Source: an uncultured bacterium
GTDB lineage: Bacteria; Caldisericota; JANLFM01
Assembly (NCBI GenBank): GCA_964614945.1
Contig: CAZTNW010000002.1
Coordinates: 43,959-107,958 of the forward strand
Direction of reading: 5' to 3'
DNA length: 64,000 nucleotides
Numbering within the stretch: position 1 is the stretch's first letter; every line of letters starts with the position of its first letter. The notes under the pieces were generated by a model. That model saw only the letters and a program-made list of their open reading frames with translations. It was not told where the DNA came from and did not search any database. This document shows, in pieces, positions 4,623 through 40,934 of this stretch. The translations under genes were made by a program, and so were the position numbers.

Positions 4623-5545
4623 AAATGGCTAATAATCCAAACAACGGTTCTGTAAGCCTGGAGGCCGCCCAAGCTCCATCGATAGCTGCTAGGATTAAAG
4701 AAGGCATGCGCAAGAACTGGTACAAGTTCTCACGCAATAAGCTTTCGGTGGTCGGTCTCGTCATTGTAGTTCTAGTGATCCTCCTGGCAATTTTCGCCCC
4801 CTGGGTCACTCCCTATCCGGAGCATGCCGGAGCTTTCGTGGATTACGACAACGCCGGCCTCGCTCCTTCCGGAACATACCTTCTCGGAAGTGATATTTTC
4901 GGCAGGGATATACTTACCCGCATCATCTACTCCTTCCGCGGAGCTCTGATCATGTCGATCGTCGTTCTCGGCCTCGCTGTCCCGCCCGGGGTGATCCTGG
5001 GGCTTCTGGCCGGCTACTTCAAGAATACCTGGATAGACACCCTGATCATGCGTATCACCGACATCTTCCTCGCACTCCCGCCCCTGATTCTCGCCCTGGC
5101 CATCGCTTCCGTGCTTGAGCCGAATCTGATGAACTCCATGATCGCCGTCACCTTAATGTGGTGGCCCTGGTACACCCGTTTAGTCTACGGGATGGCCTCT
5201 TCTTGGAGGAATGAATATTTTGTCATCGCCGCGGAGTTGACCGGAACGAGCAAGTTCCACATCCTCTTCCGCGAGATTCTGCCCAACTGCCTCTCCCCTG
5301 TCTTCACCAAGATGGCCCTCGATGTCGGCTGGGTAATTCTAATCGGCGCCTCCCTGAGTTTCGTGGGACTAGGAGAGCAACCGCCCACGCCTGCTTTAGG
5401 ACAAATGGTCTCTGACGGGGCCAAATATATGCCGGACCTCTGGTGGATGACTATCTTTCCCGCTCTAGCCATAGTCATTATCATCCTCGGTTTCAATCTG
5501 ATGGGCGACGGAATCCGAGACATGTTAGAGACAAGGATGGGCTGA
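4619..5545 (+). CDS. oppC: Oligopeptide/dipeptide ABC permease C
   Basis: LGSDIFGRDILTRIIY, EILPNC, LGFNLMGDGIRD. Confidence 0.93.
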   Translation: MKMANNPNNGSVSLEAAQAPSIAARIKEGMRKNWYKFSRNKLSVVGLVIVVLVILLAIFAPWVTPYPEHAGAFVDYDNAGLAPSGTYLLGSDIFGRDILTRIIYSFRGALIMSIVVLGLAVPPGVILGLLAGYFKNTWIDTLIMRITDIFLALPPLILALAIASVLEPNLMNSMIAVTLMWWPWYTRLVYGMASSWRNEYFVIAAELTGTSKFHILFREILPNCLSPVFTKMALDVGWVILIGASLSFVGLGEQPPTPALGQMVSDGAKYMPDLWWMTIFPALAIVIIILGFNLMGDGIRDMLETRMG

Positions 5546-5549
5546 CGAA

Positions 5550-6554
5550 ATGACTGAGAATTTGATCCTGAACATCCAAGACCTGCATGTATGGTACAAG
5601 GTATTCGGCGGTTATCTGAAGGTCCTCGACGGGGTGAATTTCACTGTCGGAAAGGGAGAGAAGGTCGGCCTGGTGGGCGAGACCGGTTGCGGGAAAACCA
5701 CCACGATGAAGGCCATTCTCCGAATTTTACCCGAGAAGGACTCGCACATTCCTCAGGGAGAAATCCTCTTTAAGGGCAAGGATACACTGAAGATGAGAGG
5801 ACACGAGCTGCAACGCGTTCGCTCGCAGGGTATCGCCATGATCTTCCAGGATCCGACGGCGGCTTTGAACCCTGTCTTCACCATCGGCACGCAGATGCAG
5901 GACGTGATCAAGTACTCGCTGGCCTCCCATAAAGGGGAGGAGGGCTCCGCAGATAAAAAAGAGAAGGAGTTGGTGCGTGATATCGCCATGCGGGCGCTTA
6001 AAGAGGTCTCCCTCCCAGATCAGGCCAGGATGCTGCATAATTATCCGATCCAGCTCTCGGGGGGGATGAGGCAGAGGGTTTGTATTTCCATGGCCATCAC
6101 CACCCAGCGCGATCTTCTGATTGCAGATGAGCCCGGCACTTCGCTGGATGTAACGATCCAGGACCAGATATTGCGTCTCCTGCGAGAACTAGTGGAGCAG
6201 AAAGGGACTTCCATCATCCTCATCACCCATTCCCTGGGAGTCGCCCGCGAGATGACGGACCGTATCTACGTCATGTATGCGGGCAATATGGTAGAAGTGG
6301 CAAAGGCCAAGGAACTTTTCGCCCACCCCAGACACCCTTACACTCTCGGCCTCCTGGCTTCCATCCCCAAGATTTCCGGCGGAGGTATCGCTGCAGGAAT
6401 AACCGGGCGCATCCCCAACTATCTGAATCCTCCCCCTGGTTGTCGTTTCCACCCGCGCTGCCTGAAGGCTATGCCGATTTGCTCCCAGGAGAAACCGACC
6501 TTCTACGAAGTAGGAGATGGCCATCAGGTGGCCTGTTTCCTCTACAAGAGGTGA
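5550..6554 (+). CDS. oppD: Oligopeptide ABC ATP-binding protein D
   Basis: Walker A GETGCGKT, LSGGMRQRV, ADEP, C-terminal PPPGCRFHPRC. Confidence 0.94.
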   Translation: MTENLILNIQDLHVWYKVFGGYLKVLDGVNFTVGKGEKVGLVGETGCGKTTTMKAILRILPEKDSHIPQGEILFKGKDTLKMRGHELQRVRSQGIAMIFQDPTAALNPVFTIGTQMQDVIKYSLASHKGEEGSADKKEKELVRDIAMRALKEVSLPDQARMLHNYPIQLSGGMRQRVCISMAITTQRDLLIADEPGTSLDVTIQDQILRLLRELVEQKGTSIILITHSLGVAREMTDRIYVMYAGNMVEVAKAKELFAHPRHPYTLGLLASIPKISGGGIAAGITGRIPNYLNPPPGCRFHPRCLKAMPICSQEKPTFYEVGDGHQVACFLYKR

Positions 6555-6559
6555 ATAAA

Positions 6560-7585
6560 GTGACACAAGAGATTCTGAAAATCAAGCAACTTAAGAAATA
6601 TTTCCGCATCGGAAAGAACAAACAAGGACCTATTTACGTTCGCGCCGTGGATGGAGTCAATTTCACCGTGAACGAAGGGGAGACCTTCGGACTGGTAGGC
6701 GAATCAGGCTCGGGCAAGAGCACCCTGGCTTACACCGTGATCGGCATGTACAAGCCGACAGCCGGCCAGATACTGTTCAAAGACAATAACATCGGCATAG
6801 AAGCCAGCAAGCGGTCCTTGGCTCTCAAAAAGGATATGCAGATCGTCTTCCAGGACCCTGGCTCCTCGCTCAATCCGCGGCGCAATATCCGCCAGATTCT
6901 CTCCGTACCTCTGAAATTGCACCGACAGATCCAGCGTGGCCGGATGGACGAGGTGATCATCGAGCTGTTGCAAAAGGTGGAGCTGCCGCCTGATTACATG
7001 TATAAATCCCCTCCTTTGATCGGCGGGGGGGAGAAACAAATGGTAGCCATCGCCAGAGCTCTGGCTCCCGATCCCTCCCTGATCGTCTTGGACGAGCCGA
7101 CCTCTGCTCTAGATGTCTCCGTCCAGGCGAAGATCATCACCAAGCTGATCGACCTGCAGAAGGAGATGAATCTCACTTACCTTTTCATCACTCACGACCT
7201 CAGCTTGATGAGGAATGTGGCTTCGAGAGTGGCCATTATGTACCTGGGGAGGATTTGCGAGCTGGCCAGCGCTGTGGAGTTTTTCCAGAAACCTCTTCAC
7301 CCCTACACAAGGATGCTTCTCTCGTCAGTGCCTGTTGTGTCGGAAGAGGAAGAATCATTGAGACCCAAAAAGATCATCTCCACCGGAGAGATTCCCAGCC
7401 CGGTCAACATCCCCCCGGGTTGCAGTTTCCACCTCCGCTGTCCGGAGAAGGTTGCGACCTGCTCAAAAGACGACCCCGAGATGCACGAGGTGAGCCCCGG
7501 GCATTTCGTACGCTGCCATCAGTTCCCCGCGAACCTTGAGGAGAGCACTTACAGCGATTCCGATCTTCTGAAAAAATCCCGGTAA
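6560..7585 (+). CDS. oppF: Oligopeptide ABC ATP-binding protein F
   Basis: Likely GTG start at 6560. GESGSGKST, DEPTSALD, PPGCSFHLRCP; the signature motif is slightly variant (LIGGGEKQ). Confidence 0.92.
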   Translation: MTQEILKIKQLKKYFRIGKNKQGPIYVRAVDGVNFTVNEGETFGLVGESGSGKSTLAYTVIGMYKPTAGQILFKDNNIGIEASKRSLALKKDMQIVFQDPGSSLNPRRNIRQILSVPLKLHRQIQRGRMDEVIIELLQKVELPPDYMYKSPPLIGGGEKQMVAIARALAPDPSLIVLDEPTSALDVSVQAKIITKLIDLQKEMNLTYLFITHDLSLMRNVASRVAIMYLGRICELASAVEFFQKPLHPYTRMLLSSVPVVSEEEESLRPKKIISTGEIPSPVNIPPGCSFHLRCPEKVATCSKDDPEMHEVSPGHFVRCHQFPANLEESTYSDSDLLKKSR

Positions 7586-7597
7586 AGGAGGAATAAA

Positions 7598-8371
7598 ATG
7601 GGCAAGATATTGTGGGTCAACCCTTTCGGCAATCCGAACTTCGACCTCCCGATCAAGGATTATTTGGCTAAAGCAAAGTCTCAGGCAAGCGAAATCAGGG
7701 TTATCTCTTTCCCTCGGGGGCCCAACCATCTGGAGTTCCATTATTATGAGTCCCTTCTCCTCTCAGATATCCTTCATGCCATAAAAAACGGGGAGAAGGA
7801 GGGCTTCGATGCGGCCATCATCGGCTGCTTCTATGACCCCGGCCTGAGGGAAGCGCGAGAGATCACGGAGCGGATGGTAGTGACCGCACCGGCCGAGTCC
7901 TCTATGCACATTGCCAGCACCCTGGGGAACAGCTTCTCCATCATCGTAGGCAGGAATAAGTGGATTCCTGCCATGCATGAAAACGTGGTTAAGTATGGCT
8001 TCAAGGATCGGCTGGCCTCTTTTAAATCGGTGGGCTTGGGGGTTCTGGAGTTTATGAAGGATGTGGCCGAGACGAACCGACGCCTGATCGAAGCCGCCAG
8101 GGAGGCCGTGGAGAAGGATCGGGCGGAGGTGATAATTTTAGGCTGTACAATTCAGTTTGGATTTTACCGGGAGCTGGAGCAGATGCTTGGCGTCCCGGTA
8201 ATCGATGCCGTCCTCGCTCCTTTAAAGTACGTTGAATTCCTCGTGGAGATCCGCGACCGTTTCGGCTGGGGCCACAGCAAGAAGTATGGTTACGAATCTC
8301 CTCCTCTCCAGGAGATTGAGGAATGGAAAATTGCCGAGCAGTATAACCTGGAAAATCTCTGGAAAAAATAA
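7598..8371 (+). CDS. Asp/Glu/hydantoin racemase family protein (copy A)
   Basis: IIGCFYDP and ILGCT catalytic Cys pair; AAGGAGG RBS. Confidence 0.88.
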   Translation: MGKILWVNPFGNPNFDLPIKDYLAKAKSQASEIRVISFPRGPNHLEFHYYESLLLSDILHAIKNGEKEGFDAAIIGCFYDPGLREAREITERMVVTAPAESSMHIASTLGNSFSIIVGRNKWIPAMHENVVKYGFKDRLASFKSVGLGVLEFMKDVAETNRRLIEAAREAVEKDRAEVIILGCTIQFGFYRELEQMLGVPVIDAVLAPLKYVEFLVEIRDRFGWGHSKKYGYESPPLQEIEEWKIAEQYNLENLWKK

Positions 8372-19852: not shown

Positions 19853-20037
19853 AGTTATCACCTCGAAATCCAGAGGTTAATTGTATCATAGTGTTATCTA
19901 TTGCCACAAGATCGATCCTCTCAACACCAGGGTAGTAAAACCTCCTCCCTTTCTCCCCTCATCAGGGGAACCTGTTAGCGGAATTACACTATCGCGGCTC
20001 CTGTTATAGAATGAAAGAGAGGAGGACGAAGATAAGC

Positions 20038-20487
20038 ATGAATACAATCGAATTGTTGGAGACTGCTATCTATAAAGAGGCGGCCGCTTTCGATTTTTAT
20101 CACGAAGTGGAGGAGCGAGTACAGAATCCCAAGGGAAAACACATTTTTCGCAAGCTGAAAGGGGAGGAGCGAGAACACAGGAAAATACTCGAAGGCTGGT
20201 TCCAGAAACAGACTAGTAAGGTTTTTTGCTTCGAATCCAATAAGAAGGGATGTCTCTTTCGTTTTCCTGAGAAGTTCGTACTCACGCAAAGTACAGCCTT
20301 AGAGGCCTTGAGCGTGGGGATCCAATCGGAAAAGGATTCGGTTAACTTCTATTCATCCTGGATGAAACAGGTGGAAGACTGCGAAATGAAGAAAATGCTC
20401 GAAGACCTGGCCCGGTTTGAGGAAGAACATTTTCTTCGTCTACGAAAGGAGTACGACGCGGTCTTAAACGACTTTTATTGGATTTAA
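20038..20487 (+). CDS. Ferritin-like / rubrerythrin-family diiron protein
   Basis: Duplicated E...ExxH pattern (AIYKE...EEREH; GIQSE...FEEEH); GAGGAGG RBS. Confidence 0.85.
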   Translation: MNTIELLETAIYKEAAAFDFYHEVEERVQNPKGKHIFRKLKGEEREHRKILEGWFQKQTSKVFCFESNKKGCLFRFPEKFVLTQSTALEALSVGIQSEKDSVNFYSSWMKQVEDCEMKKMLEDLARFEEEHFLRLRKEYDAVLNDFYWI

Positions 20488-27261: not shown

Positions 27262-28995
27262 CTAACGCCATTTTCTGAGAGCATGATAGTCCGAGACCAT
27301 CTTATTGAGGTCCCCCTCCTGGAGTCCTTTCCCCGAATCCTTTAATTTTTCCCGATAAAATCTCGCAGGAAGCCGATCATCCTCGAGGCTGAGGCCCTCC
27401 CTCAGGTTAAATTTCCGGGCCTGATTGAGGACATTCAGGGCGATGGTCTGCAGGTCCGCCCGCGACAGATCCCATCCCGTCAGCGCGAGAATCATCGTTC
27501 TGTACTCAGGCCAGAGATAGATGTCGCGGAAGAAACGGCAGAGGATGAGTGTGTCCTGGATCGTGAGCCGGTCCTCCCAATCGATAAAAGCCTCGGCTTT
27601 CCTGTCAATATCCTCCGGATCGAGCATTCCGCTTATTTCTGCCTTATAGATCGTCGAGCGCAGGTGACAGGCGCCGCGATCTGAGGTGGCATAGGCCAGG
27701 GCCATCCCCTTGAGCACACGTGGTTCATATCCCGGGGGATCCAAGCCCTTGCTGTGAACGGCTAAATCATCGAGGCCCCAGTGAGAGCTGGCGAAAAGAA
27801 TTCCCTCCGCCAATACGGCACCGACGCCCTCTTTAGCGGCAATTTGCTCTATGAGTCGGGCGATCCCGTCTGCATCTCCGTATTCCAGCTTGATTCCGAT
27901 CTTCTTTCTCCTGCTCGCCTCGATCGTAAAGCCGGCTAGATTCCCCGTGGTAATAGTGTCGAGGCCCAATCGGTCACAAAGGTCATTCAGATAGAGGATC
28001 TCGCGAATGTCGTCGATCAGGCAAATTCCTCCAAAAGCATTGATTGTCTCGTATTCTGGGCCCTCGATTCTCAGCCCAGCGTGCCTGCCTTCCCTGACTT
28101 GAGAGAGCTTTCCACAGGCCAAAAAACATTTAGGGCAAGCGTGTGAGACTATATCGCATTGCTCATGCAGTGCGGTGGAATTGATTCTTTCCCAACGCTC
28201 GAACTTACCGCGTGACCAGTACTCAGTAGGAAAGGCCCCCAGCTGGTTGGTGAGATCAACCAGCATCGGGGTACCCAATTTCTGGTATGCGGTGGCTGTT
28301 GCGCTCCTCGTTCCCCTCAGGGCGGTTTTTCGATAGAGCTGATCTAGAATATCAGGGTGAGCTATCTCCTTTTTCCTGTCGCCCCAAAAAGCCAGGGCCT
28401 TAACCAGCTTGGAGCCGAGGACCGCTCCGGAGCCTCCTCGTCCGAGCGAGCGCCAATGATCATTTTCGATCAGGGCGAAGCGGACCTTATTCTCCCCCGC
28501 GGGTCCGATAACGGCTACTCCGACATCCCTCTTCCCGATTTCTCCACGCACGGTATCCTCTGAAGAATAAGTATCCTTTCCCCAGACGTGGTGAGCATCG
28601 TGAAATTTAACCTTTCCGGGGGAGATCTCCAGGTATATCGGCCGCTCCGCCTGGCCCCGAAGGAGTACAGCGTCATACCCGGTGCGGCTAAGAGGCTCGG
28701 CCACCGATCCTCCCGCATATGACTCCAGATAGATACCGGTTAAGGGGGACTTGGTGAAGACGCCATAACGAGAAGAGCCGAAGACCCTGGTATCCGTTGC
28801 CGGGCCAGAGGCAAAAATCATGACATTTTCTCCGGAAAATGGGTCCGTTCCAGCCTTTGTGTGCTCTAAAAGAAGGTATGAAGCCAAACCCTTGCCTCCT
28901 AAAAACCGGCGGAAAATTTCATCGGAAATGTTCCGCTCTTGCCAGTCCTGTTTATCTAAATCAATCTGCAGGACTTTGTTATGAAATCCTAACAT
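27262..28995 (-). CDS. aor: Aldehyde:ferredoxin oxidoreductase (W-pterin family)
   Basis: GGKGLA, KSPLTG, IGPAGEN, GRGGSGAVLGSK, C..C..AC, GPEYET, CDRLGLDTI, RGACHL. Confidence 0.93.
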   Translation of the reverse strand: MLGFHNKVLQIDLDKQDWQERNISDEIFRRFLGGKGLASYLLLEHTKAGTDPFSGENVMIFASGPATDTRVFGSSRYGVFTKSPLTGIYLESYAGGSVAEPLSRTGYDAVLLRGQAERPIYLEISPGKVKFHDAHHVWGKDTYSSEDTVRGEIGKRDVGVAVIGPAGENKVRFALIENDHWRSLGRGGSGAVLGSKLVKALAFWGDRKKEIAHPDILDQLYRKTALRGTRSATATAYQKLGTPMLVDLTNQLGAFPTEYWSRGKFERWERINSTALHEQCDIVSHACPKCFLACGKLSQVREGRHAGLRIEGPEYETINAFGGICLIDDIREILYLNDLCDRLGLDTITTGNLAGFTIEASRRKKIGIKLEYGDADGIARLIEQIAAKEGVGAVLAEGILFASSHWGLDDLAVHSKGLDPPGYEPRVLKGMALAYATSDRGACHLRSTIYKAEISGMLDPEDIDRKAEAFIDWEDRLTIQDTLILCRFFRDIYLWPEYRTMILALTGWDLSRADLQTIALNVLNQARKFNLREGLSLEDDRLPARFYREKLKDSGKGLQEGDLNKMVSDYHALRKWR

Positions 28996-34632: not shown

Positions 34633-36915
34633 TCAGAATTTTGTCGCGCTTTCCTCCCTGCGTTTACGGAAGCCGCCGCGCTTTGAGTAAATGATGGAGG
34701 CAAAAATCACCAGCGCTCCCAGCACGATCGTCACGATTACCCCGGGATCGGAATTCTTGTACTGGATGAGAACCGGGGCCGCAAGGAGGGAGACCAGGTT
34801 GATCACCTTGATCATTGGGTTGAGCGCAGGTCCGGCAGTATCCTTGAGAGGGTCGCCGACGGTATCCCCTACCACTGAGGCTTTGTGGGGTTCGGAACCC
34901 TTACCTCCATAGAGACCATCCTCGATGGATTTCTTCGCATTGTCCCAGGCTCCTCCGGAATTTGCCATGAAGACGGCCAGAAGCTGTCCGGAGAGTATCA
35001 CACCGGCCAGAAATCCGCCCAGGGCTTCGACCTCAAGCAGCATGCCAATGACCAGGGGGGCAAGTACAGCAATTAGGGCCAGAGCGACCAGTTCCTTCTG
35101 CGCGGCGATGGTACAGATGTTAACAGCGCGGCCATAATCAGGACGAACTTTGCCCTCCATCAGGCCGGGGATACGGAATTGCCTTCTCACTTCATCCACA
35201 ATCAGGCAGGCCGCCCGCGCAACAGAGTTGATCGTCAAGGAGGAGAAAAGCCAAGGAATCGAGCCGCCAATTAACATACCGATAAAGACCCTCGGATCAG
35301 ATATGCGGATTCCAGTGTTGAGCAAGCGCAGGCTTTCCGCCAATCCCATCTGAGCCTGGACTTTTGTGATATCAGCCAGAAAAGAGCCGAAAAGGGAAAC
35401 CGCGGCAATCACGGCCGAGCCTATGGCCACCCCTTTCGTGATCGCTTTCGTCGTATTGCCCACGGCATCCATGTCGGCCAATATCTGGCGCGCCTCTGGC
35501 TCCATCCTGGTCATCTCTCCGATGCCGTTAGCGTTGTCTACGATCGGACCATAGGAATCCATGGCCACATTATTTCCGGTCAGGGTGAGCATCCCGATAC
35601 CGGTCATGGCCACCCCGTACAACACGAAGATCACGGGCTGCCCCCAGTAAATGATCACCGCGGCGAGGATGGTAAGGGCAATCACCACAATCTGCCAGAC
35701 GGAGGCCTCGAAACCAACCGCCAATCCTCGCAAAATCAGCGTGGCTGATCCTGTCCGGGAGGCTGAGGCGATATCCTTGACCGGCTTGTGATGGGTGTCG
35801 GTGAAATACTTCGTTATCTCATCAATCACAATGGCCAGCACGATGCCCACCCCGACGGAGAGAAACGCCCTCCACTCGTGCATATAGAAAACGGCTAGGA
35901 TAAGGAAAGAAACGATGGATATCCCGGCAGAGGTATAAAAGCCACGGTTAATCGAAGCCATGGCATTTCCGCGTTTTTCCTCTCTCCGCCCCCTCACGAG
36001 GTAAGTGCCGATGATAGAGGACAGGACTCCAATCCCGCGCACGAGCAGGGGGAAGACAATCCATTTCAATTCCTGGGTAATGGAGACGAGGGCAAGCCCA
36101 AGGATCAATCCGGAGACGATCGTGACCTCATAGGACTCGAAGATGTCTGCGGCCATTCCGGCGCAATCACCTACGTTGTCCCCAACCAGGTCTGCTACCA
36201 CTGCAGCATTGCGCGGGTCATCCTCAGGCACACCTGCTTCAACCTTCCCTACAAGGTCAGCCCCGACATCGGCCGCTTTGGTGTAAATCCCTCCACCCAC
36301 ACGCATGAATAGAGCGAGGAGTGTCCCGCCGAACCCGAAACCCAATAGGGCGTCGGGGGCGGCGATGCCAAAGATAATGAAGATGACCGTCCCTCCCAGC
36401 AGGCCGAGCCCGTCCGTAAGCATCCCGGTAATAGTGCCGGAGCGGTAAGCGATCTTGAGCGCTTCGGAAAAACTCCTGCGCGAGGCCGCCGCTACACGTA
36501 CGCTCCCCTGCACAGCCATCCGCATCCCGAACTGGCCAACGATGAGAGAGAAAAGAGCTCCCATAACGAAAGCTAAGGCCCTCCCCACTCCCACGATTAA
36601 TCGTACCTGATCAGGGGTGAAAGAGACAAACCGCTCGAGTGCCTCTTCGGTGGGGGGAACAACGTAGACGGAGAAAAAGAGCACCACCGTTAGAACGATT
36701 ATCAGAGGAAGTATGGTCTTGAGCTGCCTGCTTAAATAGGCATCAGCCCCCAGGCGGATGGCATCCCAGACCTCCTGCATTTTGGAGGTCCCTTTTTCCT
36801 TCCGCAAGATCTGCCTCCGAAGGAATAGGGCATAAGCCAACCCAAGAAAGGCGATAAAGAGAACGCTCCAGATGGCCACAATCTCAAAAGGGCTGGCATG
36901 AGTCAAACCTGCCAT
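34633..36915 (-). CDS. hppA: Membrane-bound H+-translocating pyrophosphatase, K+-independent type
   Basis: KAADVGADLVGKVE, DNVGDCAG, GNTTKA (Lys marks K+-independence), GDTVGDPLKDTAGP; likely ATG 36915. Confidence 0.94.
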   Translation of the reverse strand: MAGLTHASPFEIVAIWSVLFIAFLGLAYALFLRRQILRKEKGTSKMQEVWDAIRLGADAYLSRQLKTILPLIIVLTVVLFFSVYVVPPTEEALERFVSFTPDQVRLIVGVGRALAFVMGALFSLIVGQFGMRMAVQGSVRVAAASRRSFSEALKIAYRSGTITGMLTDGLGLLGGTVIFIIFGIAAPDALLGFGFGGTLLALFMRVGGGIYTKAADVGADLVGKVEAGVPEDDPRNAAVVADLVGDNVGDCAGMAADIFESYEVTIVSGLILGLALVSITQELKWIVFPLLVRGIGVLSSIIGTYLVRGRREEKRGNAMASINRGFYTSAGISIVSFLILAVFYMHEWRAFLSVGVGIVLAIVIDEITKYFTDTHHKPVKDIASASRTGSATLILRGLAVGFEASVWQIVVIALTILAAVIIYWGQPVIFVLYGVAMTGIGMLTLTGNNVAMDSYGPIVDNANGIGEMTRMEPEARQILADMDAVGNTTKAITKGVAIGSAVIAAVSLFGSFLADITKVQAQMGLAESLRLLNTGIRISDPRVFIGMLIGGSIPWLFSSLTINSVARAACLIVDEVRRQFRIPGLMEGKVRPDYGRAVNICTIAAQKELVALALIAVLAPLVIGMLLEVEALGGFLAGVILSGQLLAVFMANSGGAWDNAKKSIEDGLYGGKGSEPHKASVVGDTVGDPLKDTAGPALNPMIKVINLVSLLAAPVLIQYKNSDPGVIVTIVLGALVIFASIIYSKRGGFRKRREESATKF

Positions 36916-37102
36916 AATGATTTCATCCTTTCTTCCGAGTCTCGCACACAGAAGGTCAAGGGACATTCTACAAAAATTTGCCCCAGGAGTAAATGAAACC
37001 AGCTGGCGCACCAATTTGAGGAAAGGGTGGGATAGGAAGGGATTGAATATCGGGGGCTTTTTTTTGTTATGTTCTATGTAATACTGAGAGAGGCGGGAAC
37101 AA

Positions 37103-38266
37103 ATGAGACCATACATATATCTTGATAATTCGGCCTCCACACGTCTCGATGAGAGGGTGCTGGAAGCGATGAAGCCCTTCTTTTTCGAGAATTACGCAGT
37201 GGCGACATCGGAGTTCGCCTACTCACTGGGGGTCGAGGCGAAAGAAGCGCTGGAGGGAGCAAGGGAGAGGATTTCCCGACTGCTGGGGGCATCTCCGGGA
37301 GAATTCCTCTTCACCTCTGATCCTACGGAAGCGAACAATCTCGCCATCCAGGGAGTGGCCACTGCACTGGCGGAGCAAGGAAGAATGCACTTCATCACCT
37401 CCAAGATCGAGGACTTCTCCGTACTCAACACCTTCCGAGCTTTAGAAAAAAGAGGGGCTTCCGTAACCTACCTTGCTGTGGACGAGAGAGGATTTGTGGA
37501 CCTCGATTTGCTCCGCAGGTCCCTGCGGAAGGATACAGCGCTCATCTCCATCCAGCACGCGAACCAGGAAATCGGCACAGTGCAGGACCTGGCGAAGATC
37601 GCGCGCCTGGCGAAGGAGCATGGTCTGATTTTTCACTCAGACTGCGCCCACACCTTCATGCGGGCCCCTCTTGATGTGAGCGCGATCCCGGCCGACCTGT
37701 TGACAGTCTCCGCTCATACTCTGCACGGCCCCAGGGGAATCGCCGGCTTATATGTCCGTAAAGGCACCCCCATTCGCAAGATCCTCGAGGGGGGGTTTCA
37801 GGAGAATAACCTCAGACCCGGGATGGAAAATATACCCGGTGTGATGGGCTTCGCCCGAGCCCTGGAGTTGATCACCCCGGAGGAAAATGAGAGGCTCAGA
37901 GAGATGCGCGATCGTCTGATCGAAGGACTCCTGTCCTCTGTCCCGGACAGCATCCTCAACGGGGATCGGTGGAAGCGGATTCCGCAAAACGCAAATATCA
38001 CCTTCCGCTTCGTGGAGGGAGAGTCTCTCACCCTGCATCTGGACTTCAGGGGCATCGCCGTAAACACCGGCTCCGCCTGCTTCAGCAAGTCTCTGGAGGC
38101 AAGTCACGTGATCCTCGGGATCGGCGGTGACCACGAGAGGGCTCATGGTTCACTGCGTTACACCCTCTCACGCTTCAATACGATGGAGGAAATGGAGACG
38201 GTCATTCAGACCACAGCGGAAATCGTCTCCCGCTTGCGCAAGATCAGTCCCTTAGGAAAGGAGTGA
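37103..38266 (+). CDS. IscS/NifS-like cysteine desulfurase homolog lacking PLP-binding residues
   Basis: YLDNSAST, RPGMEN, GSAC (catalytic Cys) and SHV are kept, but SAHK reads SAHT, EH reads ED and DxxQ reads DCAH. Confidence 0.88.
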   Translation: MRPYIYLDNSASTRLDERVLEAMKPFFFENYAVATSEFAYSLGVEAKEALEGARERISRLLGASPGEFLFTSDPTEANNLAIQGVATALAEQGRMHFITSKIEDFSVLNTFRALEKRGASVTYLAVDERGFVDLDLLRRSLRKDTALISIQHANQEIGTVQDLAKIARLAKEHGLIFHSDCAHTFMRAPLDVSAIPADLLTVSAHTLHGPRGIAGLYVRKGTPIRKILEGGFQENNLRPGMENIPGVMGFARALELITPEENERLREMRDRLIEGLLSSVPDSILNGDRWKRIPQNANITFRFVEGESLTLHLDFRGIAVNTGSACFSKSLEASHVILGIGGDHERAHGSLRYTLSRFNTMEEMETVIQTTAEIVSRLRKISPLGKE

Positions 38267-38272
38267 GGATCA

Positions 38273-38914
38273 ATGCCTTTTCCCTACAGCGAAAAGGTCT
38301 TAGAGCATTTCAAGAATCCGCGTAATGTGGGCAAGATGGAAAATCCTGATGGGAAGGCTATAGAGGGTAGTCCGGCCTGCGGTGACATGGTGGCCGTATA
38401 TATAAAAGTGGAACCCGAGACCAAGACCATCAGCGACATTAAGTTCGAGTCATACGGCTGTGCTTCCAATATCGCCACCGGTTCTATCATCACCGAATTG
38501 GCCAAAGGGAAGACGCTGGAGGAGGCCAAGAAGATCACCTGGATGCAGGCCTCGGAAGCGCTGGGCGGCCTCCCTCCGCTCAAGGTCCACTGTTCGGTTC
38601 TGGCCGTGGAAGGTCTGCGGGAAGCTATCCGCGATTACGAGGAAAAGCACGGCCTCGCCATCTTAAAGGAGCCCACCTCCAAGGAGGTGGTGATTTCCCG
38701 GCTGCGCCACGTGATGAATCCCTTGACAGGGCTGGATCTGATCCGAACGAAGATTGTGAAAGATGTGACGGTTGAAGCCGGGATCGTAACTGTATCCATC
38801 GACCTTGCCGAGGACCATCCGTTTGCTAATTCCATTCGCGAGGATATAAAGGAACGGATCGGCAGGCTCCAGGACATCAGGGAGGTCAGGGTGCTCTTTC
38901 AGGGAGGAAAATGA
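38273..38914 (+). CDS. iscU: IscU/NifU Fe-S scaffold with a C-terminal DUF59/MIP18-like extension
   Basis: YSEKVLEHFKNPRNVG, CGD, GCASNIA, LPPLKVHCS, plus ~85 extra C-terminal residues. Confidence 0.9.
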   Translation: MPFPYSEKVLEHFKNPRNVGKMENPDGKAIEGSPACGDMVAVYIKVEPETKTISDIKFESYGCASNIATGSIITELAKGKTLEEAKKITWMQASEALGGLPPLKVHCSVLAVEGLREAIRDYEEKHGLAILKEPTSKEVVISRLRHVMNPLTGLDLIRTKIVKDVTVEAGIVTVSIDLAEDHPFANSIREDIKERIGRLQDIREVRVLFQGGK

Positions 38915-38915
38915 A

Positions 38916-39137
38916 ATGGCCGATTGGAAAATTGACGTAACCGGAGAGACCTGCCCCGTCCCTCTTGTGGAGGTGCGCAAGGCCATCCGCAAGGCCAGGG
39001 AGGGCGATGTAGTGGAGGTAACGGGAACCCATCCGGCCTCGAAGAAGGAGATCCCGATGGCGGCGGAGGCGATGGACTTGAAGGTACTGGAGATCAAAGA
39101 GGCAGGGGAAAAATGGACAATTCGCATCCAGAAGTAA
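38916..39137 (+). CDS. tusA: TusA/SirA family sulfur carrier
   Basis: IDVTGETCPVP (CPxP motif), 73 aa. Confidence 0.9.
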   Translation: MADWKIDVTGETCPVPLVEVRKAIRKAREGDVVEVTGTHPASKKEIPMAAEAMDLKVLEIKEAGEKWTIRIQK

Positions 39138-39559
39138 CCGCTTCAAAGAGGACCACCATCATAGTACACAGCTATTCTCTCGACCACCTGATGAGCGCCT
39201 TGATCATAGGAACGGGCTCCCTCTCCATGGGCATGGGGTGCTCCCTCTTCTTCACCTTCTGGGGGCTGAATGCCTTGAGGAAGGAGGGCTTAGAAAAAGC
39301 GCCCCTCTCGAAGATGAATATGCTGGGATTGGGACGCTGGATGATGAAAAAGAGGATGGGAGCACGGAATGTAGCAACGCTCAGAAGATTGATGGCGGAT
39401 TTCAAGGAGCTGGGGGGAAAGATCATCGCCTGCGAGATGACGATGGAGATCATGGGGGTAAAGAAGGAAGACCTTGAGCAGGGCCTGATCGACGACTACG
39501 GTGCCGTTGGAACTTACCTCAAAGACGCCAGGGACTCGACCATCAATCTGATTGTTTAG
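39113..39559 (+). CDS. DsrE2-like (DsrE/DsrF/DrsH family) sulfur-transfer protein
   Basis: LFFTFWGL, IIACEMTMEIMG (conserved Cys), GAVGTYL. Confidence 0.88.
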   Translation: MDNSHPEVTASKRTTIIVHSYSLDHLMSALIIGTGSLSMGMGCSLFFTFWGLNALRKEGLEKAPLSKMNMLGLGRWMMKKRMGARNVATLRRLMADFKELGGKIIACEMTMEIMGVKKEDLEQGLIDDYGAVGTYLKDARDSTINLIV

Positions 39560-39770
39560 AATCCTCCGCTGCCCCTTTTGCTACCCTCTGTAAAAGCATC
39601 CCGAGGACAAGAGGAGGCTTGGGAAAAGGGTCGAGAATTTCGCGTTTTCTATTGGATCGGCTGAATTTAAACAAAAATCTGAGAGATAGATCACCCATCT
39701 GGCCCGGGACTCAGCTTTGACCGATTCTGCAATCTGAGATACCATTTTAACCAGCCATGGAAGAGGGTAA

Positions 39771-40934
39771 ATGGTTTTATTATCCTGGTCCTTTTTAATT
39801 CTGATCGCCGTGAGCTGGGCTTACTGGCTGGTCGTCCTCGGTACCGCTCTCCATTTCTTCAGTCAGAAGCGCCGTATCGATCCGTCTTTTCTCCCTCCTG
39901 TCTCCATTTTGAAACCGGTAAAGGGGATGGAGCGCGGAGCCTACGAAAACTTCGCCTCCTTCCTCGAGCAGGATTATCCGGACTACGAGGTGCTCTTCGG
40001 CGTCGAAGATCCCAATGATCCGGCCGTGCTTGTAATCAGGCAGATCCAGAGGGATTTCCCCTCCGCCAGGGTGGGACTCTACGTTACTCCTCCCCTGGGG
40101 GCAAATCGAAAAGTGGCCATCCTGCAGCATTTGCAGGAGAAAGCATCCAACGAGATCCTTGTCCTGAGCGATTCAGATATCCGGGTGCGCCGGGATTTCC
40201 TCAGCAATATCGTCGCCCCTCTGGCCGACGGTAAGACGGGGTTGGTCAGCAGCTTCTATCGCAGTGAGCAGGCCCTCAGTTCAGCGGCAAGGGTGGAATC
40301 GCTCCTGATCTCGACTCTGATGCTACCCTCGGGGATTCTCGGTTCGTACCTGATAGGCCTCCGCTATGCTTTCGGCGCCGCTATCGCCTTGAGACGGAGG
40401 GCCTTAGAGGACATGGGGGGATTCCTTGTGATCAAGGACCACCTGGCGGACGATCATCAGTTGGGTGCACTGATCGGTCGCGCAGGATGGGGAGTAGTGC
40501 TGTCGAATCATGTGGTCTCCAACATGATGAACCACATCAGCTGGCGAGGCTTCTGGGATAGACAATTGCGCTGGATGAGGGTAGCTCGCGTCTGCCGGAG
40601 AAAAGAGTATCCCGGCATGCTCCTGATCTTCACCTTCCCTCTGTCATTGGCCTTCGTTTTCCTCTCCCTCTTCTCTCCGCTCTCCGTCTGGCTTTTTATC
40701 GGCTCGCTGGCCCTGCGCTTCTCTTTTGCCTTCTGCTTCGCCGTCTACCTGGATCATCGGCAGATGAGACGCTGGCTCCACCTTTTGCCCCTTGCTGATT
40801 TTTTTTACTTCATCCTCTGGGTTAAAGCCATGTTCACATCTCAGGTCGCCTGGCGCCAGCATGAGTTCCTACTGCTTGCGGACGGCAGAATGAAACCCAC
40901 CGGCCTCCAATCCAACGGAAAGGAAGAGGATTAG
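39771..40934 (+). CDS. HpnI-like / ceramide glucosyltransferase-type glycosyltransferase
   Basis: N-terminal TM, PPVSILKPVKG, QDYPDYEVLFGV, GANRKV, SDSDI, LADD, RQLRW. Confidence 0.85.
   Translation: MVLLSWSFLILIAVSWAYWLVVLGTALHFFSQKRRIDPSFLPPVSILKPVKGMERGAYENFASFLEQDYPDYEVLFGVEDPNDPAVLVIRQIQRDFPSARVGLYVTPPLGANRKVAILQHLQEKASNEILVLSDSDIRVRRDFLSNIVAPLADGKTGLVSSFYRSEQALSSAARVESLLISTLMLPSGILGSYLIGLRYAFGAAIALRRRALEDMGGFLVIKDHLADDHQLGALIGRAGWGVVLSNHVVSNMMNHISWRGFWDRQLRWMRVARVCRRKEYPGMLLIFTFPLSLAFVFLSLFSPLSVWLFIGSLALRFSFAFCFAVYLDHRQMRRWLHLLPLADFFYFILWVKAMFTSQVAWRQHEFLLLADGRMKPTGLQSNGKEED

Follow-up and report, generated by a model that had tools for sequence, protein, structure and literature searches.

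The 64-kb window studied here (the whole stretch of 64,000 nucleotides from contig CAZTNW010000002.1 of an uncultured Caldisericota bacterium) carries a four-gene cassette headed by a homologue of the cysteine desulfurase IscS that lacks the lysine of the pyridoxal 5'-phosphate (PLP) site. The Lys-less iscS gene is followed by genes for an IscU scaffold fused to a DUF59 domain, for TusA and for a DsrE2B-like protein. The cassette is widespread, conserved and essentially uncharacterised, although one Lys-less member, IscS1 of Methanosarcina acetivorans, was already known. Sulfur delivery to iron-sulfur (Fe-S) scaffolds in strict anaerobes is an acknowledged open question; in reviews of the field no sulfurtransferase is known for the SMS system, and MIS is named as the system that has received the least study (PMC13066941, PMC12192291). 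The cassette is a concrete candidate for such delivery, with an apparently desulfurase-dead IscS that keeps its Cys loop, two putative persulfide carriers and a fusion of scaffold and delivery domain. Its carriers include organohalide respirers, syntrophs and methanogens. In the window the four genes are arranged as follows:

37103-38266, + strand: Lys-less iscS, 387 aa, intact open reading frame (ORF); group-I cysteine desulfurase homologue without the PLP lysine and four other PLP contacts
38273-38914, + strand: iscU-DUF59 fusion, 213 aa; NifU_N at residues 5-126 and FeS_assembly_P/DUF59 at residues 137-207
38916-39137, + strand: tusA, 73 aa; Pfam TusA PF01206, 1.2e-21; active Cys in CPVP, TGC at 38952-38954
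39113-39559, + strand: dsrE2B-like sulfur-carrier gene, 148 aa; Pfam DrsE_2 PF13686, 3.5e-35; motif IIACEM

The product of the first gene has the fold of the class-V aminotransferases (Pfam Aminotran_5 PF00266, 8e-62, residues 5-366 of 387). Its closest match in the PDB is Archaeoglobus fulgidus IscS2 (4eb5, E 2e-96), and the IscS, NFS1 and NifS structures deposited there match it at 1e-75 to 1e-96. Alignment to E. coli IscS (MG1655) and A. fulgidus IscS2 gives the residue numbering and places the decisive positions as follows:

37412-37414, + strand: Asp104 (GAC), motif IED, at the position of the PLP-stacking His (E. coli His104)
37565-37567, + strand: Gln155 (CAG), at E. coli Asn155, a PLP contact
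37649-37651, + strand: His183 (CAC), at E. coli Gln183; the DxxQ motif reads DCAH (37640-37651)
37718-37720, + strand: Thr206 (ACT), within SAHT (residues 203-206), at the Schiff-base Lys (E. coli Lys206); two changes from AAA/AAG
38078-38080, + strand: Cys326 (TGC), within GSAC, the mobile-loop cysteine (E. coli Cys328), retained

A preliminary description of this DNA had reported the loss of the lysine, the stacking histidine and the DxxQ glutamine, and the retention of the GSAC cysteine in an intact frame; all of these codons and coordinates proved exact. Five PLP contacts are in fact replaced together: H104D, N155Q, Q183H and K206T are joined by the change of Thr243 to a hydrophobic residue, which is Met in the window protein. 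The protein also scores below all NCBIfam desulfurase cut-offs (421 vs 531 bits for NifS; 339 vs 643 and 350 vs 548 for IscS). Judged from its sequence, it is by fold and ancestry a group-I IscS/NifS homologue that lacks what defines the enzyme, namely the lysine, the PLP contacts and the NCBIfam scores. Lys206 is needed for cysteine desulfurase chemistry. PLP enzymology and the precedent of the A. fulgidus protein suggest that the window protein would have lost both cysteine cleavage and the binding of PLP as an internal aldimine. That it still acts as a cysteine desulfurase, with PLP held non-covalently or with some other base standing in for the lysine, is very improbable. Such an activity could draw on the residues that remain in the alignment to the E. 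coli enzyme (Asp180, Ser203, His205, Thr76, Arg354, which is Arg352 in the protein's own numbering, and Cys328, its own Cys326), but the replacement of Lys206, His104, Asn155, Gln183 and Thr243, the scores under every curated desulfurase cut-off, fold-type I PLP enzymology and the inactive A. fulgidus IscS all argue against it. The label 'cysteine desulfurase' attached to genes of this family is thus likely wrong, which matters for metabolic reconstructions from metagenome-assembled genomes (MAGs). An AlphaFold2 model built from a 26-sequence family alignment has a mean predicted local distance difference test score of 57, too poor for pocket geometry.

Contigs of three other sequencing runs (L001-L003; L numbers denote loci) carry the gene base for base, so the threonine codon is real and no read error. 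A MAG locus (L004) holds the nearest iscS relative (69%). The ratio of nonsynonymous to synonymous substitution rates (dN/dS) is about 0.06 against an 84%-identical homologue, with dS near saturation, and this excludes relaxed selection; across 26 homologues from both domains of life 130 of the 387 columns (34%) are invariant. The gene is no isolated pseudoenzyme. The family is large, and the M. acetivorans member had already been reported to be Lys-less (PMC7585200). When one genome per species is scanned with family-specific peptide patterns, the family appears in at least 571 species-level genomes, a lower bound. That the window gene is a decaying paralogue or a sequencing artefact without function, as the loss of catalytic residues might suggest, is hardly credible. 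This explanation was ruled out by the identical DNA in three other samples, the dN/dS of 0.06, the spread over at least 571 species, the conserved operon and the detection of the orthologue, IscS1, in the M. acetivorans proteome (PMC7585200).

Neighbourhoods were compared at 80 species-level loci, from which 71 family sequences were aligned. The bacterial carriers among these loci belong to Dehalococcoidia, Anaerolineae, Syntrophales, Thermodesulfovibrionales/Nitrospiraceae, Clostridia/Acetobacterium and Atribacteria, and the archaeal carriers to Thermoplasmata, Methanofastidiosa, Hadarchaeota and Methanobacteriaceae. Asp104, Gln155 and Thr206 are present in 71/71 sequences and His183 in 70/71, with Asn155 in canonical copies. 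Among the best 120 database homologues (62-84% identity), Asp104 is found in 120/120, His183 in 118/120 and Thr206 in 113/120 (the others have Ile, Ala or Asn), while Cys326 and Arg352 are invariant in 120/120. The signature D104/Q155/H183/T206, the TGSACFS loop and the shared neighbours assign the window protein, at the level of sequence, to the Lys-less IscS1-type (MA0808-type) family.

The three partner genes encode proteins suited to scaffold and carrier roles. The second gene, described before as iscU, is more exactly an iscU-DUF59 fusion (Pfam NifU_N 8e-42; FeS_assembly_P, or DUF59, 3e-12), kept in 71 of the 80 family loci. Its ligand set C36, D38, C63, H106 and C107 is 99-100% conserved (68 sequences) and its LPPxK-like motif reads GGLPPLKVHC. 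The closest PDB match is A. fulgidus IscU (4eb5_C, 2e-41), and its score is lower than NCBIfam demands of an IscU/NifU equivalog (157 vs 188). In the DUF59 part the usual CP cysteine is replaced by DH, and the domain has no Cys. The CPVPL motif of TusA is invariant (74 sequences); the window protein falls under the NCBIfam equivalog cut-offs for TusA, YedF and YeeD. A YedF-like role in selenium metabolism was considered for it and rejected (43 vs 79 bits, and selenium genes were not found nearby). The fourth protein has a single conserved cysteine, Cys107 (TGC at 39431-39433; 98% of 57 sequences), and matches the Sulfolobus solfataricus DsrE2B structure 2qs7 at 3e-19 over residues 11-143. Its earlier label as DsrE2-like is borne out by the DrsE_2 domain, by this match and by Cys107, but not by the curated DsrE2 family (NCBIfam NF047629), against which it scores 61.6 bits with a cut-off of 210. 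The gap between the Lys-less iscS and iscU is 6 nt and that between iscU and tusA 1 nt, and tusA overlaps the dsrE2B-like gene by 25 nt; this spacing indicates that the cassette genes are translationally coupled.

The linkage seen in the window recurs in other genomes. All four genes are adjacent in 66 of the 80 family loci, and tusA and/or dsrE2 adjoin the Lys-less iscS in 76. Two of the four exceptions lie on short contigs. The true exceptions are the Anaerolineae loci L005 and L006 (around 5300-8350), where the Lys-less iscS is found without iscU, tusA or dsrE2 nearby. There its neighbours encode a small 4Fe-4S ferredoxin, rubrerythrin-like and Crp-like proteins, a nitroreductase and a DUF59 protein that is not fused to a scaffold and has the CP cysteine, and glutaredoxin-like (Grx-like) and ferredoxin:thioredoxin reductase-like (FTR-like) genes lie downstream. 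The cassette occurs in two gene orders: the majority order is tusA-dsrE2-iscS-iscU, and the window order, iscS-iscU-tusA-dsrE2, is common to Anaerolineae and some unclassified bacteria. Clustering of all flanking ORFs of the 80 loci yielded no fifth conserved gene, and HscAB, Fdx and IscA genes were absent within 6 kb on either side.

As a control, the closest canonical relatives were examined at 80 loci from metagenomes; they are 45-60% identical to one another and about 45-49% identical to the Lys-less family. Lys206 is present at 78 of them, and tusA or dsrE2 in the flanks of none of these 78, 45 of which extend for 1.5 kb or more on either side of the gene; iscU is found at 53 of the 80. 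The sole control locus with dsrE2 and tusA, L143, is itself Lys-less, with Gln at position 206. The two carrier genes are thus exclusively associated with Lys-less homologues (76/80 vs 0/78; the raw p of a Fisher test is about 1e-39, a value that ignores kinship). This comparison supports the earlier proposal that TusA and DsrE2 replace cysteine as the point of sulfur entry. It also bears on another arrangement, in which the Lys-less IscS acts only as A. fulgidus IscS does, as structural partner and fourth cysteine ligand of a cluster built on IscU from free sulfide and iron, while TusA and DsrE2 are co-regulated for sulfur homeostasis (to buffer, detoxify or regulate) and do not feed the scaffold. 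The A. fulgidus precedent speaks for this arrangement, as do the best PDB matches of both IscS and IscU to the A. fulgidus complex, the anaerobic hosts of sulfidic settings with plentiful sulfide, and the direct use of sulfide by SMS systems (PMC12192291). It leaves unexplained, however, why tusA and dsrE2 track the loss of the lysine and recur in separate lineages, and the close translational coupling that ties iscU to tusA and dsrE2 in the window points to stoichiometric co-function. On balance it is quite unlikely.

Loss of the lysine is not confined to the window family. Among the best 150 representatives of 50%-identity clusters, 16 lack it, and they display several distinct pocket signatures. 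The loop cysteine is present in every Lys-less representative that reaches this position; one of the 16, P0124, is a fragment. In a crude neighbour-joining (NJ) tree computed with the signature columns left out, the Lys-less representatives fall into six or more clades, and every one of these has sisters that bear the lysine. The further Lys-less homologues, and the gene contexts recorded for some of them, are:

Proteins P0123, P0130, P0135, P0145, P0148, P0149, P0150, P0164: Lys-less homologues
Proteins P0170, P0175, P0193, P0214, P0218, P0222, P0260: Lys-less homologues
Loci L088-L093, L143, L162: Lys-less homologue loci
P0123: Lys-less iscS-iscU/DUF59-tusA; within the NJ clade of the window family
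P0130: Lys-less iscS-iscU-tusA; outside that clade
P0148 (A. fulgidus type): tusA-Lys-less iscS; outside that clade
L143: dsrE2 and tusA; outside that clade
P0149 (on a short contig) and P0150: with iscU alone

A tusA gene accordingly stands next to a Lys-less IscS gene in about three separate clades. At locus L089 (3028-4902, - strand), which encodes the archaeal Lys-less P0150, the divergent neighbour is a 624-aa protein of PUA and PAPS-reductase type (with TGT_C2), which may be a tRNA-thiolation or tRNA-modification enzyme.

The sister lineages also help in judging the pocket itself. The remodelled pocket (Asp104, Gln155, Asp180, His183, His205, Thr206 and Arg354, with the phosphate cup Thr76/Ser203/His205) could be a new active or binding site, either for Fe(II) or for an oxyanion (thiosulfate, for example) that Cys326 would attack, which would make the protein a PLP-independent enzyme mobilising sulfur or iron. 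The substituted residues are invariant in bacteria and archaea and of polar or metal-binding type; Arg354, Asp180, His205 and Thr76 are kept despite the loss of PLP; and the Cys loop that normally enters the pocket is invariant. However, with one third of all columns invariant, invariance at four sites is unremarkable, and in the sister Lys-less lineages other residues, some of them hydrophobic, occupy the pocket (Ala104, Trp183, Gly205 and Leu206 in P0123; Arg104 and Leu206 in P0150), which favours simple filling of a void. The invariance of D104/Q155/H183/T206 was for these reasons downgraded as proof of a new active site, and an enzyme of this kind is improbable.

The reading preferred here, given about an even chance, is that the cassette is one module, an Fe-S assembly unit of the ISC/MIS type with a rewired sulfur input, in which the desulfurase-dead IscS serves as a docking platform and Cys-loop shuttle that passes persulfide sulfur from TusA and DsrE2 to IscU. 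Such a module would work in four steps: (i) the Lys-less IscS, keeping its fold, dimer-type architecture and mobile Cys326 loop, would most likely dock IscU-DUF59 as A. fulgidus IscS docks IscU, (ii) Cys107 of the DsrE2B-like protein and the CPVP cysteine of TusA would bring in sulfane sulfur in persulfide (or thiosulfonate) form, (iii) the sulfur would then move from these two carriers to Cys326, which is likely a persulfide shuttle and/or cluster ligand, or straight to IscU, (iv) the DUF59 domain would help to pass the finished cluster onward. Both the direction from TusA/DsrE2 to IscS/IscU and the sulfur source (sulfide-derived polysulfide, thiosulfate or elemental sulfur) are pure inference.

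Several points weigh against this reading. The known flow in E. coli, from IscS to TusA to TusD, runs opposite to the proposed direction, and the Lys-less family has not kept the residues through which E. coli IscS touches TusA. The DsrE2B of Metallosphaera cuprina is said to have been unreactive with the sulfur compounds tried. The function of DsrE2 has been called unclear (PMC11094781). No rhodanese, SQR, transporter or thiosulfate importer gene is conserved beside the cassette in the 80 loci. The correlation of lysine loss with tusA is uncorrected for phylogeny, and the number of clades was read off a crude NJ tree. IscS1 of M. acetivorans was insoluble when produced in E. coli, and the study that reported this made no experiments on isc1 (PMC7585200). 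The organism also has an active IscS2. Finally, in three Dehalococcoidia loci a canonical iscS (K206 and all PLP contacts) and an iscU lie about 2 kb from the cassette, in convergent orientation:

L014, 9230-10796, - strand: canonical iscS-iscU beside the cassette
L068, 8718-10285, - strand: canonical iscS-iscU beside the cassette
L071, 8722-10285, - strand: canonical iscS-iscU beside the cassette

Since some genomes thus have canonical IscS-IscU as well, the cassette is an additional system and not necessarily the sole Fe-S route. The preliminary description is partly supported, and the cysteine-independent system that it put forward would be an extra route.

Sulfur could also flow the other way. 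The Lys-less IscS and IscU-DUF59 would then draw their sulfur from a cluster or from sulfide in solution, and Cys326 would deliver it to TusA, from which it would reach DsrE2, with thio-cofactors (for tRNA thiolation, molybdopterin or thiamine) and not Fe-S clusters as the output. This is the direction established in E. coli, where IscS passes sulfur to TusA and the DsrE-type TusD; the synteny data are symmetric as to direction, and the archaeal locus L089, with its possible tRNA-thiolation enzyme, also fits. Set against this, acceptor genes (TusE/DsrC, MnmA, MoaD/ThiS-type or others) are not conserved near the cassette in the 80 loci, the full IscU ligand set and the DUF59 delivery domain would be superfluous in a pure sulfur relay, and the protein has no obvious means of making persulfide without PLP. 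Reverse flow of this kind is possible but unlikely.

A bolder version of delivery from TusA/DsrE2 to the scaffold joins the whole set of lineages. Here the repeated, convergent loss of the lysine together with recruitment of TusA (usually with DsrE2) would lead to cysteine-independent Fe-S assembly on environmental sulfane sulfur or sulfide, and the pocket as rebuilt in the main family (Asp104/His183/His205/Thr206 with Arg354 and the phosphate cup) would have become a metal site or a catalytic one, so that IscS itself would mobilise sulfur (e.g. from thiosulfate or polysulfide) or iron and be more than a passive adaptor. This combination is improbable. If true, it would supply the long-missing protein path by which strict anaerobes bring inorganic sulfur into Fe-S clusters.

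Some neighbours of the cassette are limited to certain lineages, among them genes for P-type ATPases, ABC ATPases, histidine kinases and Grx-like/FTR-like proteins. An HMA-domain heavy-metal P-type ATPase gene lies directly downstream of the cassette at 14 loci (L012, 8701-10980, and 13 others, mostly Dehalococcoidales), and some of these loci also encode a small His-rich membrane protein with a SHOCT domain nearby; the arrangement may be lineage synteny or a link to metal supply. In Anaerolineae with the window gene order, dsrE2 is followed on the same strand by a glutaredoxin-like CGWC gene and a gene whose product combines a part like the catalytic subunit of ferredoxin:thioredoxin reductase with a rubredoxin-like domain:

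L063, 9069-9856: Grx-like and FTR-like pair
L082, 8815-9803: Grx-like and FTR-like pair
L034, 9385-9888: Grx-like and FTR-like pair
L067, 10348-11171: Grx-like and FTR-like pair
L027, L039, L052, L076: Grx-like gene alone

The pair also occurs 2.5 kb downstream of the cassette in a Hadarchaeon and is missing from the window. The two proteins may be reductants of persulfide or disulfide intermediates, which would fit thiol/persulfide redox chemistry.

The surroundings of the cassette in the window are those of an anaerobe. Genes for rubrerythrin (20011-20487), a tungsten-type aldehyde:ferredoxin oxidoreductase (27262-28995, - strand) and the hopanoid glycosyltransferase HpnI (39771-40934) mark the host as an anaerobic bacterium. 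Upstream, the mechanical ORF of a membrane pyrophosphatase (34633-37140, - strand, with GTG at 37140) overlaps the start of the Lys-less iscS at 37103 on the opposite strand. The family match of the pyrophosphatase begins at residue 83, so translation probably starts some 250 nt downstream of that GTG, which would leave a divergent intergenic region of about 200 nt. A scan of 36800-39900 for sigma-70 promoters and terminators gave counts at the level of shuffled sequence, with nothing usable upstream of the Lys-less iscS or past dsrE2, and Rfam and tRNA scans of the window had no matches. Around the cassette the window has no IscA or HscAB gene. The 64 kb yielded neither a second desulfurase nor an IscA nor a further scaffold, bar one marginal IscA-like similarity at 6131-7582 (+ strand; phmmer E 9e-5 to E. 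coli IscA) within a longer ORF, which may be an A-type carrier domain or a chance match.

Among known systems, MIS (MisS-MisU) is described as an IscS-like and IscU-like core without chaperones, ferredoxin or A-type carriers, found in anaerobes of both domains; its cysteine desulfurase is said to be functional, and a carrier is not part of it (PMC13066941, PMC12192291). The cassette resembles it in its IscS-like/IscU-like pair without HscAB, Fdx or IscA in anaerobes, and differs in that the MisS-like protein is Lys-less, DUF59 is fused to the scaffold and two sulfur carriers are present. SMS (SmsCB) uses sulfide directly (PMC12192291) and, as proposed for the cassette, assembles Fe-S clusters in anaerobes without a cysteine desulfurase; its proteins, with a scaffold of the SufBC-type ATPase kind, are unrelated. 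Such a cassette is unmentioned in recent reviews of MIS and SMS (PMC13066941, PMC12192291). The searchable literature likewise contains no paper that joins DsrE2, TusA, IscU and IscS, and none that ties tusA or dsrE2 to Lys-less homologues, although an earlier mention of either remains possible.

The closest solved relative of the DsrE2-like protein, over its full length, is the tusA-paired DsrE2B of Sulfolobales (S. solfataricus SSO1126, PDB 2qs7), a sulfur carrier of the soluble trimeric type. In M. cuprina the gene set is reportedly dsrE3A-dsrE2B-tusA. The Sulfolobales dsrE2B and tusA genes flank sHdr sulfur-oxidation genes in aerobic thermoacidophiles, whereas the partners in the window are Lys-less IscS and IscU in anaerobes.

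In E. coli the sulfur donor is IscS, an active PLP enzyme with distinct binding sites for IscU and TusA. The relay runs from IscS to TusA, then to TusD (of TusBCD, which is of the DsrEFH type) and on to TusE, with persulfide handed between single cysteines. The same three families, IscS, TusA and DsrE-type, meet in the cassette, whereas in E. coli their genes are unclustered and the DsrE-type member is TusD in place of a DsrE2B-like protein. As the Lys-less IscS cannot, on the arguments above, generate persulfide, its sulfur flow is probably the reverse of that from IscS to TusA in E. coli.

The nearest structural precedent is the A. fulgidus IscS2-IscU complex (PDB 4eb5/4eb7/4hvk; D199K variant 4r5f), the top solved-structure match of both the Lys-less IscS (2e-96) and its IscU (2e-41). 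The A. fulgidus IscS is Lys-less with the loop cysteine kept; it is inactive as a desulfurase, and this cysteine ligates the [2Fe-2S] cluster of IscU (PMC7585200) as its fourth ligand. It is about 45% identical to the window protein and has a different pocket signature (H104 and N155 kept, with A183, N205, D206 and L354), its IscU has no DUF59 fusion, unlike that of the window, and in the NJ tree it forms a separate clade with Lys-bearing sisters. The distinct signature and separate clade imply that the window family lost its lysine independently of A. fulgidus. Metagenomic relatives of the A. fulgidus type include one with tusA (L090) and one with dsrE2 and tusA (L143). The window protein thus stands outside the A. 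fulgidus lineage, yet by analogy it probably works like A. fulgidus IscS.

The closest counterpart of the whole cassette is the isc1 cluster of M. acetivorans, which comprises IscU1 (MA0807, 24.2 kDa), IscS1 (MA0808), a 'DrsE superfamily' protein (MA0809) and a 'SirA-like' protein (MA0810) (Deere et al. 2020, PMC7585200). The motifs of IscS1 given in Fig. S2 of that work (IED, HSNQE, ATH, SAHT and STGSACFS; PMC7585200) place it in the same family as the window protein, and the mass of IscU1 appears to match the size expected of an IscU-DUF59 fusion of the window type. The cassette is shared with the window in the majority order, tusA-dsrE-iscS-iscU, as opposed to iscS-iscU-tusA-dsrE2. Deere et al. 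noticed that IscS1 lacks the lysine and PLP residues and proposed a role like that of A. fulgidus IscS; they called MA0809 and MA0810 genes of unknown function and drew no link to a sulfur relay or to a wider family (PMC7585200). Because MA0807-MA0810 reside in a genetically tractable organism, the proposed route from TusA and DsrE2 to the scaffold is directly testable in M. acetivorans.

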